Shown here: positions 21,448-25,360 of the stretch, piece after piece
Position numbering within the stretch: the first letter of the stretch is position 1
Layout of the letters: the number at the start of each line of letters is the position of its first letter
IMG/VR virus record: IMGVR_UViG_3300029319_000006
Location: 82,763 to 146,762 of that record
DNA: 64,000 bases
DNA from: a virus
Reading direction: 5' to 3' (one strand)
Translations under genes and position numbers: made by a program
The notes under the pieces: model-generated
The model's database searches: none
Told to the model about the DNA's origin: nothing
The model's input: only the letters and a program-made list of their open reading frames with translations

Positions 21448-22032
21448 ATGGCAAATTTGTTTAGAAACTTAGAACAACAGGCATTTAAAGCAGGGATTAC
21501 TCCTAGAACTCAACAATCCAGAGAATGGTTTAGGAAAAAAGCTGCTGGTCTTAGAAGAATTAATAGAAATGCTTTGATGAGAGAAAAAGAACTAATAAGT
21601 TCTCCAAAGCATATTATTGGTTCTATGCAAATGTTTTTTTATGATCCAAAGACAAAAGATACATTACCTTATTATGATACATTTCCTCTTTCTGTCATAA
21701 TAGGACCAGCTGATGGAGGATTTATGGGATTAAATTTGCATTATCTTCCTCCAATATTGAGAGCTAAATTTTTGGATAGCTTGTTAGATTTAGCAAGTAA
21801 TAAAACATATGATGAAGATACAAAATTTAATATTAGATATAGTATGTTAAAAAGAGCTGCAAAATTTAGATATTTCAAACCATGTATAAAACATTATCTT
21901 TCCAGTAATGTAAGAAGTAAATTTTCTACAGTTTCTGCTACTGAATGGGAAATTGCAACATTTTTGCCAACAGCTCAATGGAAAAAGTCCAATTCCAGTA
22001 ATGTTTATTCTCAATCAAGAAGGATGATTTAA
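21448..22032 (+). CDS. gp2: DNA end protector gp2
   Basis: FFYDPKTKDTLPYYD.FPL, GLNLHYLPP..RA; GATAAATA late-type motif at 21435-21442. Confidence 0.92.
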   Translation: MANLFRNLEQQAFKAGITPRTQQSREWFRKKAAGLRRINRNALMREKELISSPKHIIGSMQMFFYDPKTKDTLPYYDTFPLSVIIGPADGGFMGLNLHYLPPILRAKFLDSLLDLASNKTYDEDTKFNIRYSMLKRAAKFRYFKPCIKHYLSSNVRSKFSTVSATEWEIATFLPTAQWKKSNSSNVYSQSRRMI

Positions 22033-22769
22033 TGGTACAATCAATTGATCAGTTAAAAAGTTTAGTAAGTGCTAAAGATGGTATAGCACGTCCTAATCTT
22101 TTTAGAATAAAATTTCCATCATTACCAGGAGCATCATCAGAAGAAATAAACATTTTATGTAAAGATGTTCAACTTCCAGGAAGACAAATTTTAAGTAACG
22201 AAAGAAGAATTGGTCTTAAAAGAGAAAAAGTACCTTATGGTTATGCTGTAGAAGATATATCTTTAACATTTCATGTTTTAAATGATTATGGTATAAAAGA
22301 GTATTTTGAATCTTGGCAAAACCTAGCTATAAATCAACAAACACAAGAAGTTGGTTATCAGAGAGGATATGGAGGATATGCTAGACAAGTTGAAATAGAA
22401 CAATTCAAGAAGGTGACAAAACTTCCTAATAAATTTACTTCAAGTATATCTAAAAGTTCTAATTCATTTCTACCTAAGTTAAGTGATCTTGATATAGTTC
22501 AAAGTTTTTTTGGTATACAAGATGAAATAAATGATTTAGTTGTTTATAAATGTAAATTAATTGATGCTTATCCAACTACATTAACAGCTATTCAACTTAA
22601 TAATGAATTAGATGGAGTTGTAGAATTGAACATACAATTGTCTTACACAAATTGGGAATCACCATTTGTACTTTCTCCATCTAATATAAAAGATGCAATT
22701 CAAACTAAAATAAGTTCAACGATAGTAGGATTTTTAAATGACGGGATTAATAATTTAATTAAAATATAA
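22032..22769 (+). CDS. Tail tube initiator gp54 / gp19-like
   Basis: GIARPNLF, C....LPG, F..W...I, L..AYP..L..I.L, ...Y..W pattern of the T4 tube family. Confidence 0.8.
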   Translation: MVQSIDQLKSLVSAKDGIARPNLFRIKFPSLPGASSEEINILCKDVQLPGRQILSNERRIGLKREKVPYGYAVEDISLTFHVLNDYGIKEYFESWQNLAINQQTQEVGYQRGYGGYARQVEIEQFKKVTKLPNKFTSSISKSSNSFLPKLSDLDIVQSFFGIQDEINDLVVYKCKLIDAYPTTLTAIQLNNELDGVVELNIQLSYTNWESPFVLSPSNIKDAIQTKISSTIVGFLNDGINNLIKI

Positions 22770-22781
22770 TAAGGATTTGAT

Positions 22782-23483
22782 ATGGCACTACCCAGACTAA
22801 ATGATGTACCAAAATATACATTAAAAATACCATCAACAAAAAAGGAGATTACTTACAGACCATTTTTAGTTAAAGAGCAAAAAGTTTTACTTATGGCTCT
22901 TGAATCTCAAAATGATAAACAAATATTACAAGCAGTATTAGATACAATTGAAGCATGTGTACTTGATAAAATAAATGCAACTAATTTAGCACTATTTGAT
23001 TTAGAATATGTATTTTTAAAAATTAGATCTGTAAGTGTAGGAGAAGGAGCAGAAGTTACAATAAAATGTCAAAAGTGTGAGAATCCAGTAAAGACTAAAA
23101 TAGATTTAAATAGTATTACTTTTGATAAAATGCCTGAAAATAGAATTAAAATAAATGACAAATATACTATACAAATGATGTATCCAACTTTTAATACTAC
23201 TATATCAGGAGTATCTAATTCTACATTAGCAGAACAAGTATATATTTCTGCAATAGGATGTTTAGATAAACTACTTACAAATGATGAAGTGATAGATTTT
23301 AAAGATGAAACAGAAGAAGAAAAAAAGGCTTTCTTAGAAAGTTTAACTGCTCTTCAGTTTGAAAGTATAATTGAATTTGTAAATAATTTACCACGTTTGA
23401 GAAAAGAAGTAGAATATAAATGTGAAGAATGTAATACTATTAATAAAACTACCCTGGAGGGGTTACAAGATTTTTTATCCTAG
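22782..23483 (+). CDS. gp26: Baseplate hub assembly protein gp26
   Basis: MALP.L..P.Y.L.IPS....YRPFLVKEQK.LL.A, FD.EY.FL.IR..SVGE, two CxxC, C-terminal LEGLQDF. Confidence 0.92.
   Translation: MALPRLNDVPKYTLKIPSTKKEITYRPFLVKEQKVLLMALESQNDKQILQAVLDTIEACVLDKINATNLALFDLEYVFLKIRSVSVGEGAEVTIKCQKCENPVKTKIDLNSITFDKMPENRIKINDKYTIQMMYPTFNTTISGVSNSTLAEQVYISAIGCLDKLLTNDEVIDFKDETEEEKKAFLESLTALQFESIIEFVNNLPRLRKEVEYKCEECNTINKTTLEGLQDFLS
23456..23477 (+). other. Candidate -1 ribosomal frameshift signal
   Basis: GGAGG (23456-23460), 10-nt spacer, then T TTT TTA (23471-23477) in the correct phase of gp26. Confidence 0.7.
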
Positions 23484-23668
23484 GCCTTTCCCATGATTCT
23501 TTGACAAATCATTATCATGTAAATTATCAGTTAATACAAAACCACAAATATTCCTTAACTGATGTAGAAACAATGATACCATGGGAGAGGGAAATTTATT
23601 TAACTATGCTTATTGATGATATTAAAAAACAAAATGAAGAAGCACAAAAACAAAATATGCAAAGGTAA
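23471..23668 (+). CDS. gp51: gp51-like hub assembly catalyst, in the -1 frame of gp26; probably expressed by frameshift
   Basis: Not in the ORF track. Manual translation FFILGLSHDSLTNHYHVNYQLIQNHKYSLTDVETMIPWEREIYLTMLIDDIKKQNEEAQKQNMQR*; N..L.Q.HKYSL...E.MIPWER.IY is the gp51-like signature. Confidence 0.85.
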   Translation, partial: FFILGLSHDSLTNHYHVNYQLIQNHKYSLTDVETMIPWEREIYLTMLIDDIKKQNEEAQKQNMQR

Positions 23669-23671
23669 GTC

Positions 23672-25360
23672 ATGTCTAATTTAAAAAATGTAGTAGAAGA
23701 ACTACAAAATCAGCAGGAAGGTCTTAATGATGTTAATTCTAGTATTCAACAATTAATTAAGATACAAACAGATCAACTTAAATCAGAAAGAAGACAAGCT
23801 GGTGATGACTTAGAAAAACAAATCGAATCTAATCGAAAGAAAAAAGCTGGAACACAGTCAAGAGCTCCTGCTCCTAGATCTTTTGCACAAGGTTTAGGTC
23901 AAGGTACTGGTATTAGTGCAGTACTTGGAGGTGTCCAAGGTTTATTTCCTTCTTTTGCTGGTGCTTTAGGTGGTGCATCATTAGCAGGATTATTAGGAAA
24001 ATTTACTGGAAGATTAGTATTAGGATCAATTGGTTTCTTTTTAGGTAAGGAGTATTTGGATAAACATGTAGATAAACTTACTAATATGTTAAATTTAGAT
24101 ACTATCAATATATTTGGAGAAGATTATGATACATCTAAAATAGTTTCTGGATTAACTGGAGCATTTGCATTAGTATTAGGTCCTGCTGCAATAGGAGCTG
24201 CTGTAAAAAGATTCTTTGGAGGAGCTTCATTTAGAAATCAAATACTTGGAGGTCCTTCTGGTGGTGCTGGTCCAAGAAGAGGATTTGGCTTTATAGGAAG
24301 ATTAGGATTAGGTGCTGCAGTTCTTACAATAGGTAGTTTATTAGGAGATAAAATTGGTGAATTAACAAGCAATCAAGACTTAGATGATGCAGTAACAGCA
24401 GCTGCTTCAACAGCTGGTTTACTAATGATGTTTAACCCAAAAGTTGGTATACTTGCTGGTTTAGCTGTTTTTGCTTATAAAGGTTTTCAGGCTTTAGATA
24501 AATGGCTAGATGGCAAAAAAGCTGAAGCTATGAAAGAGTTACAAAGAGAATTAGATAGTACAGTAATTCCTGGCACTACCAAATATTATTCAGATATGTC
24601 AGCTGAAGATTTTAGAAATTTAGAAGAAAAATCTTTAGGATTTAATGTAGCTTCAAGATTACAAACTAGAGCAGCTGATGCATATACTGGAGGCTATATG
24701 GAAGCATCTGGAAATGAAAGTGCTTCATATAGAACCAGAGCAGCAGAATTAGGAAATGCTGCTAAAATAGCTATGGTTAATATGAGTTTAAAAGATGGTA
24801 ATAATAAAAAAAGAGTTATTGATGCAAAACTAGAAGCTGCTGTTGAAGGTAATGCTTTAGTTGCATCTGAATTAGCAAATTTTTATTATAATAAGTTTGG
24901 TTCGGATTACTTATCAGCTATAGATAATGATTTACAAAGAGCTGATGGTATATTTGCTCCAGGTCTATATGGAATAACTGAAGACAAAAGAAAAGCATTT
25001 TTAAATAATATTAATAATTTACAAATGGAGAGAATGAGAGGTTCAGGAGATGGAAATTATGACTCTCTTATTTTACAAAATACCAGTGGTGCTAAAAAAC
25101 CAGGATATTTAAGTAAAATTACAGGAGCAATTAGTAATTTTATGGGAAGAGGCTTAGCTGATATATCTAATCCTGGAATGACTAATCAACCTTCTGTGTT
25201 TATTGATAATAGTAACAGCAATAATAGTACTGTTAATAACAATGGAAAAACCTCCGCAACAAGTTCTGGATCAAGTGGTTCAGCCACTGACTTTGATGTC
25301 ATATTTGATCCATTAGTTATATACGGAGGTGGTTCTAAAGGAGTTAGTCCAGAATATTAA
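23672..25360 (+). CDS. Tape-measure-like (gp29-position) protein
   Basis: Coiled-coil N-terminus, Gly/Ala-rich hydrophobic helices, N/S-rich tail; follows gp26/gp51. Confidence 0.6.
   Translation: MSNLKNVVEELQNQQEGLNDVNSSIQQLIKIQTDQLKSERRQAGDDLEKQIESNRKKKAGTQSRAPAPRSFAQGLGQGTGISAVLGGVQGLFPSFAGALGGASLAGLLGKFTGRLVLGSIGFFLGKEYLDKHVDKLTNMLNLDTINIFGEDYDTSKIVSGLTGAFALVLGPAAIGAAVKRFFGGASFRNQILGGPSGGAGPRRGFGFIGRLGLGAAVLTIGSLLGDKIGELTSNQDLDDAVTAAASTAGLLMMFNPKVGILAGLAVFAYKGFQALDKWLDGKKAEAMKELQRELDSTVIPGTTKYYSDMSAEDFRNLEEKSLGFNVASRLQTRAADAYTGGYMEASGNESASYRTRAAELGNAAKIAMVNMSLKDGNNKKRVIDAKLEAAVEGNALVASELANFYYNKFGSDYLSAIDNDLQRADGIFAPGLYGITEDKRKAFLNNINNLQMERMRGSGDGNYDSLILQNTSGAKKPGYLSKITGAISNFMGRGLADISNPGMTNQPSVFIDNSNSNNSTVNNNGKTSATSSGSSGSATDFDVIFDPLVIYGGGSKGVSPEY

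Follow-up and report, generated by a model that had tools for sequence, protein, structure and literature searches.

A gp26-like gene in the genome of an uncultured marine T4-like phage very probably contains a programmed −1 ribosomal frameshift site, through which, on the comparative sequence data, the one gene would yield proteins of 233 and 295 aa. The gene lies in the 64-kb stretch of DNA analyzed here (the window), and the features concerned are collected in Table 1. The initial annotation had put forward that the phage produces gp26 and, by a −1 shift, a gp26−51 fusion of about 295 aa, the pair being the counterpart of lambda G/GT or P2 E/E′, and this proposal found support in all comparative tests. 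The G/GT-like reading is supported because the heptamer and the −1 frame are invariant among single-gene relatives, the heptamer is absent from two-gene phages, the extension has no conserved start, and the short form has a chaperone fold in its N-domain. Two features of a tail-chaperone frameshift, a slippery site and a −1 open reading frame that has no conserved start, are present at the locus. The sequence anatomy, its conservation, the paralogy with the T4 genes and the fold are established directly.

Table 1. Features of the gp26-like locus and its flanking genes (window coordinates)
Feature	Position	Strand	Evidence
Tail-tube-like gene (gp48/gp54 class), upstream of the gp26-like gene	22032..22769	+	phrog_45 'tail tube', 8.9e-29
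gp26-like gene, 0-frame short form, 233 aa	22782..23483	+	PF12322 match
SD-like GGAGG, exactly 10 nt 5′ of the heptamer	23456..23460	+	Sequence
Putative slippery heptamer T TTT TTA, X XXY YYZ phase	23471..23477	+	Sequence; invariance among relatives
−1 frame extension, 63 codons + TAA, gp51-like C-terminal domain	23477..23668	+	phrog_634, phrog_150
0-frame stop TAG, one codon past the heptamer	23481..23483	+	Sequence
Next gene, 562 aa, Gly-rich, candidate tape measure or hub protein	23672..25360	+	Position, composition

The 3′ end of the gp26-like gene reads CTG GAG GGG TTA CAA GAT TTT TTA TCC TAG, with TTT (23472−74) as the P-site and TTA (23475−77) as the A-site codon, and the sequence, the heptamer with its phase and the GGAGG with its spacing had all been annotated correctly to the base. 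Because this AT-rich window has 106 copies of TTTTTTA and 73 of GGAGG over its two strands, heptamer and GGAGG alone are not beyond chance, and the significance of the candidate slippery site rests on the comparative data, not on the motifs by themselves. The −1 frame was likewise found as described, gp51-like and open from 23447 to the TAA at 23666−23668, with 63 sense codons from 23477; ahead of its MIPWERE motif the only start codon is TTG 23501, which has no SD. Reading codons 22782−23477 and then 23477−23665 gives the 295-aa long form. The possibility that the true run is seven Ts, with the split a homopolymer error, was checked on the contigs of four independent marine metagenome studies that cover 23300−23800. 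These have six Ts and no indel, three of them spanning the region in one piece, and the only difference that they share is A>T at 23521, which turns GTA into GTT, a synonymous change in the −1 frame. None of the sequencing runs listed for the locus was an RNA run. Further downstream, at 23572−23640 (encoding MIPWEREIY), the depth summed over short metagenome contigs climbs from ∼8 to ∼200, and this stretch is apparently nearly identical in nucleotides across many other marine phages.

Family membership of both parts of the putative long form is clear from profile searches. The 22782..23483 ORF matches PF12322 (T4_baseplate, the gp26/gp51 family) at 1.5e-57 and 195.2 bits against a gathering cutoff of 24.5, and covers positions 2−218 of the 219 in the profile and hence the whole domain; its gp26 body matches phrog_150 at positions 5−232. 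The 23477−23665 product matches phrog_634 ('baseplate hub assembly catalyst', 5e-23) and continues in phrog_150 at positions 235−281, the same family as the gp26 body. The genome from which the window is taken (146.8 kb, estimated 84% complete) holds one PF12322 gene and one extension, although at that completeness a second copy is conceivable; megablast of the locus against phage records returned no near relative. An AlphaFold2 model of the extension consists of three helices (pLDDT 91), for which no specific structural neighbor was found. Mean column identity over 26 relatives is 63% for the extension versus 54% for the gp26 body, a level of conservation that shows the extension to be under purifying selection.

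We compared the locus with those of other phages that have a single gene of this family. A tblastn search with the extension recovered 535 phage records, comprising cyanophages, pelagiphages and Vibrio, Sinorhizobium, Caulobacter and other phages. For the analysis of the slip site 55 gp26 genes were used, namely 44 usable loci of 47 from IMG/VR (34−52% identity; the other three run off the contig), those of ten named phages (C48C1, Mosig, DSL-LC03, S-CAM1, Vibrio D484, phiN3, Melnitz, Ochrobactrum OC, S-PM2 and S-SSM4) and that of the window. All 55, which come from cyanophages, pelagiphage Mosig, Methylophilales, Ochrobactrum, Sinorhizobium phiN3 and Vibrio D484, among others, carry NNT TTT TTN in phase at the gp26 3′ end, and in every locus long enough to include it the extension lies in the −1 frame. 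In KVP40 and Aeh1 the site reads GAT TTT TTC, and the extension again follows in the −1 frame. The expectation that the 3′ ends of T4-like gp26 genes share a T-run with gp51 in the −1 frame was thus borne out for every single-gene relative in the set, and the arrangement named as its refutation, gp51 in variable frames with an SD and ATG of its own, was not encountered among them.

Codon-level statistics were computed on 38 lineages with less than 80% identity. The P-site codon is TTT in 38/38 (baseline 77% of Phe codons in the same genes), and the codon that precedes it ends in T in all 38 lineages as well, whether it encodes Asp, Ser or Asn, against a 76% baseline; the naive probabilities of these two observations, 5e-5 and 3e-5, ignore shared ancestry. 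The A-site codon varies between TTT (21 lineages), TTC (14) and TTA (3). Upstream of the heptamer the −1 frame is closed within 0−17 codons in the lineages compared. Downstream, the conserved extension residues LSH[DE]xLxNYY begin already at position +2.

The comparison with T4 is informative in that this phage has two genes of the PF12322 family, as do RB49, RB43 and Acinetobacter 133, while S-PM2, Mosig, phiN3, Vibrio D484, KVP40, Aeh1 and the window's genome have one each. T4 gp51 (249 aa) matches PF12322 at 3.9e-52 over its residues 1−201 and phrog_150 up to position 280 of 282, and its residues 196−247 align with the −1 product across the junction. T4 gp26 (208 aa) ends in ...RGLKEFFELL and so has the same GLKEFF motif as the end of the 0-frame product, but encoded as GAG TTC TTT. 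By sequence, then, T4 gp26 is the short form and T4 gp51 the long form, made from a paralog, and the architecture of the T4 gp51-type long form, a PF12322 domain with a C-terminal three-helix extension, is predicted for the window's phage only when the −1 frame is joined to the gp26 body. What had been described as the gp51-like domain therefore does correspond to the C-terminal domain of T4 gp51, though gp51 itself is not a mere extension but a full gp26 paralog. Because T4 gp51 is a full paralog plus extension, the small 'gp51' annotated in cyanophages represents the C-terminal piece of the long form. No heptamer is found at the gp26 ends of T4 (GAG TTC TTT), RB49 (AGT TTC CTT), RB43 (GCG TTT TTA) and Acinetobacter 133 (GAA TGC ATC), nor at the equivalent place in the gp51 genes of these four phages. 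Across one- and two-gene phages, the heptamer is thus present in all those, and only those, that lack a separate gene for the long form.

Genes 26 and 51 of T4 are divergently transcribed, as are the two paralogs of RB49 and Acinetobacter 133. RB43 (NC_007023, 64.6−65.9 kb; L068:1483−2791) has a gp51-like frame of 253 codons and a gp26-like frame of 191 codons in tandem on the same strand, with the open frames of the long- and short-form paralogs overlapping by ∼23 nt, and this may be an intermediate gene order after duplication. A tree of PF12322 domains resolves clans of single-gene proteins (support 97/96), of gp51 (97/93) and of gp26, but as it is unrooted it says nothing on the ancestral state, and an ancestral frameshift is argued solely from distribution among phage lineages, that is, from occurrence in cyanophages, pelagiphages, rhizobiophages and the KVP40 and Aeh1 branches. 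With this in mind we lean, by a narrow balance, to gp26/gp51 being, for the T4 superfamily as a whole, the long-missing tail (hub) assembly chaperone of G/GT type, with the frameshift as the ancestral state and a swap to duplication, into short 26 and long 51, in the T-even and pseudo-T-even phages.

Three other explanations of the split reading frame were weighed. One is that RNA polymerase adds one U in the T-run, such that some of the mRNAs code for the fused long form; the proteins made would not differ, but recoding would take place at the transcript. Runs of 7−8 T slip more readily in transcription (reviewed in PMC5009743), and such runs are found in 21/38 lineages; the remaining 17, the window among them, have six Ts only, which is short for efficient polymerase slippage. 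Moreover, it is the codon register NNT TTT TTN that is invariant and not the length of the run, and both the nearby 0-frame stop (0−2 codons past the heptamer in most lineages, 8 codons in four) and the partial enrichment in SD-like sequences fit a ribosomal event, so that we consider transcriptional slippage improbable. Still less probable, in our view, is the translation of a ∼55−63-aa 'gp51' by itself, through re-initiation or coupling at the gp26 stop. Annotated records do carry a small separate CDS, S-PM2, Vibrio D484 and phiN3 have an ATG 4−5 codons into the extension, and in a profile search with the extension, which returned 1,895 cluster representatives, 67 of the best 150 database ORFs start within the first 8 extension positions. 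The starts called among these best 150 nevertheless range widely, between 16 residues ahead of the slip site and 20 inside the domain, and in 34/37 lineages there is no ATG, GTG or TTG before codon +10 (the window's first is the TTG at +10, without SD), yet residues +2 to +20 are conserved. Separate translation would also leave unexplained the invariant heptamer, its absence in two-gene phages and the colinearity with T4 gp51.

That a homopolymer error or a recent 1-nt deletion has split a single fused ORF is hardly credible, even if a run of six Ts is error-prone and a few database proteins (P0091, P0047 and P0013) do have the end of gp26 and the extension in a single frame, as in ...EGSANFF|LLILSHESL. 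Such joins may reflect genuine gene fusions, natural variation in the length of the T-run or indels from assembly, and the closest IMG/VR relatives of the three proteins have the usual split arrangement. The reading as artifact or decay is largely refuted by the indel-free contigs of the four metagenome studies, by the recurrence of the same split in 55/55 relatives, including isolate genomes such as S-PM2 (and also in those of KVP40 and Aeh1), and by the signature of purifying selection on the extension.

Returning to programmed −1 frameshifting, we considered which elements might stimulate it. The GGAGG proposed as an upstream stimulator is present in the window but not universal among the relatives, as an SD-like 4-mer at −18..−6 is found in 20/38 lineages, or about half, versus a background of 4.6%, a difference to which a conserved Glu-Gly contributes as a confounder. 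The signal in codon choice is modest: the aligned Glu codon is GAG in 9/16 lineages where 22% would be the baseline (P=0.003), and GGR is found in 20/38 lineages against 37.5% (P=0.04). Plausibly, then, the GGAGG at 10 nt is a lineage-specific enhancer, optional at best and outside the conserved core. A conserved downstream RNA structure was not found either: RNAalifold on 35 sequences gave 0 pairs, z-scores in single-sequence folds of 37 lineages were mostly non-significant, and the local fold in the window (−5.4 kcal/mol, z −0.9) is not a downstream stem-loop of the dnaX type. Since SD-like sequences are absent from about half of the lineages and there is no conserved downstream structure, frameshift efficiency could be low. 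S-PM2 (L057:1492−1560) has a 13-bp hairpin ∼16 nt past its TTTTTTC (−15 kcal/mol, z −4.0), which may be a lineage-specific 3′ stimulator; most of its relatives have nothing comparable.

According to the mechanism that we propose, most ribosomes would read on to the TAG at 23481 and release the 233-aa short form. A fraction would slip back by one base with tRNA-Phe on UUU (23472−74) and tRNA-Leu on UUA (23475−77), the two tRNAs re-pairing on UUU UUU (23471−76), after which AUC at 23477 would be read and translation would proceed for 63 codons in all, giving a 295-aa protein with the predicted junction ...EGLQDF(L/F)ILGLSHDSL.... The GGAGG 10 nt upstream may raise the level of shifting in the window's lineage, and the shift would fix the ratio of short to long form. 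The two forms would be counterparts of T4 gp26 and gp51, which are named 'hub assembly chaperones' by Leiman et al. (2010, PMC3004832, Table 2). If lambda G/GT and P2 E/E+E′ are a guide, the N-terminal chaperone-fold domain that both forms share may bind and hold the tape measure or a hub protein, and another baseplate or tube component may be recruited by the three-helix extension. The occurrence of the shift, its efficiency and the binding partners are what we infer from these data, as are expression of the gp26−51 fusion and a set ratio between the two forms.

The fold of the short form is consistent with such a function. Its AlphaFold2 model (pLDDT 87) was aligned exhaustively to 48,161 PDB representatives, and the three best matches all cover residues 1−96, where the fold matches that of the solved chaperones HK97 gp13 (2ob9), YqbN (3klu) and Rbstp2171 (3fgx). 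The modeled N-domain thus has a tail-assembly-chaperone fold. Foldseek of the gp26 model against the PDB gave no match at E <= 0.001, with the HK97 chaperone found weakly (probability 0.66), so that the chaperone matches emerged only in the exhaustive alignment, and a sequence search of the PDB with the gp26 profile gave no match. The part of the short form beyond the N-domain has weak zinc-ribbon matches, and four cysteines are conserved, C96 being invariant and C99, C214 and C217 present in at least 90% of sequences.

Among known systems, the one closest in mechanism is P2 E/E+E′, where slippage takes place on TTTTTTG and no hairpin follows (PMC3091744). Both belong to contractile-tail phages and show a T6N heptamer close to the 3′ end of a chaperone gene that precedes the position of the tape measure, with no hairpin downstream. 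The P2 E protein, however, counts 91 aa against the 233 aa of the short form, which has an added zinc-ribbon and middle domain; no sequence similarity was detected between the two, and their extension domains appear unrelated. In lambda, the −1 shift that yields gpGT alongside gpG takes place at G GGA AAG (Xu, Hendrix & Duda 2004, cited after the review PMC5009743). The likeness here would be one of logic, in that short and long form share their N-terminus, that neither is found in the virion and that the gene precedes that of the tape measure, whereas the slippery sequence is a different one, the lambda protein is smaller, and the T4 homologs have been assigned to assembly of the baseplate hub rather than the tube. 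T4 itself shares with the window's phage the PF12322 family and the colinearity of gp51 with the predicted fusion, but uses separate paralogs that have no slippery site where the window's phage, with its single gene, would need recoding to make the long form. Finally, the E. coli dnaX gene, which encodes tau and gamma, has A AAA AAG as its heptamer, an SD 10 nt upstream and a 3′ stem-loop. The GGAGG in the window has precisely this spacing, but the family to which the window's gene belongs has no conserved 3′ stem-loop and carries SD-like sequences in about half of its lineages, and the frameshift product would be the longer form here, where it is the shorter one in dnaX.

The review by Atkins et al. 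(2016, PMC5009743) describes the G-T frameshift as conserved in long-tailed phages 'except T4'. Our analysis indicates that most T4-related phages use a tail-chaperone frameshift, located in the gp26 gene, and that T4 makes the same pair from two paralogs. None of 11 annotated phage records has a joined CDS at the gp26/gp51 locus, 'gp51' being given as a mini-ORF or left uncalled, and no report of the site was found in the largely open-access literature covered on gp26/gp51 or on baseplate hub frameshifting. The annotation of hundreds of cyanophage and pelagiphage genomes, in which 'gp51' is a start-less mini-ORF or uncalled, could be corrected accordingly. The results also provide a testable model, in which T4 gp26 and gp51 would be a pair of G/GT-like chaperones serving the tape measure or hub, and a natural example of frameshifting and gene duplication as interchangeable solutions.

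With respect to a position between tube and tape-measure genes, the gene upstream is tail-tube-like, and pelagiphage Mosig has a relative of it under the annotation 'baseplate tail tube initiator'. The 562-aa gene downstream had been called tape-measure-like, and by position, size and Gly-rich composition only it does look like one; this impression is not backed by a family match, as it gave no match in Pfam, PHROGs or PDB sequences, and specifically none to phrog_1283 (= T4 gp29) in searches of Pfam, PHROGs and Atlas. The Atlas groups it with viral hypothetical proteins, some of which have a Gly-zipper.

The wider neighborhood (20930−22032 and 25357−27182) is typical of T4-like phages. It includes genes for a gp4-like head completion protein with a TnsA-like N domain and for the gp2 DNA end protector, and, on the minus strand, for gp32 (PF08804, 5e-43), a 2OG-Fe(II) oxygenase and the gp33 late-transcription coactivator. 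According to ARAGORN, the 64-kb window has no tRNA genes. The stop codon of the gp2-like gene (21448−22032) and the ATG of the tail-tube-like gene have base 22032 in common, which suggests translational coupling inside a late operon.
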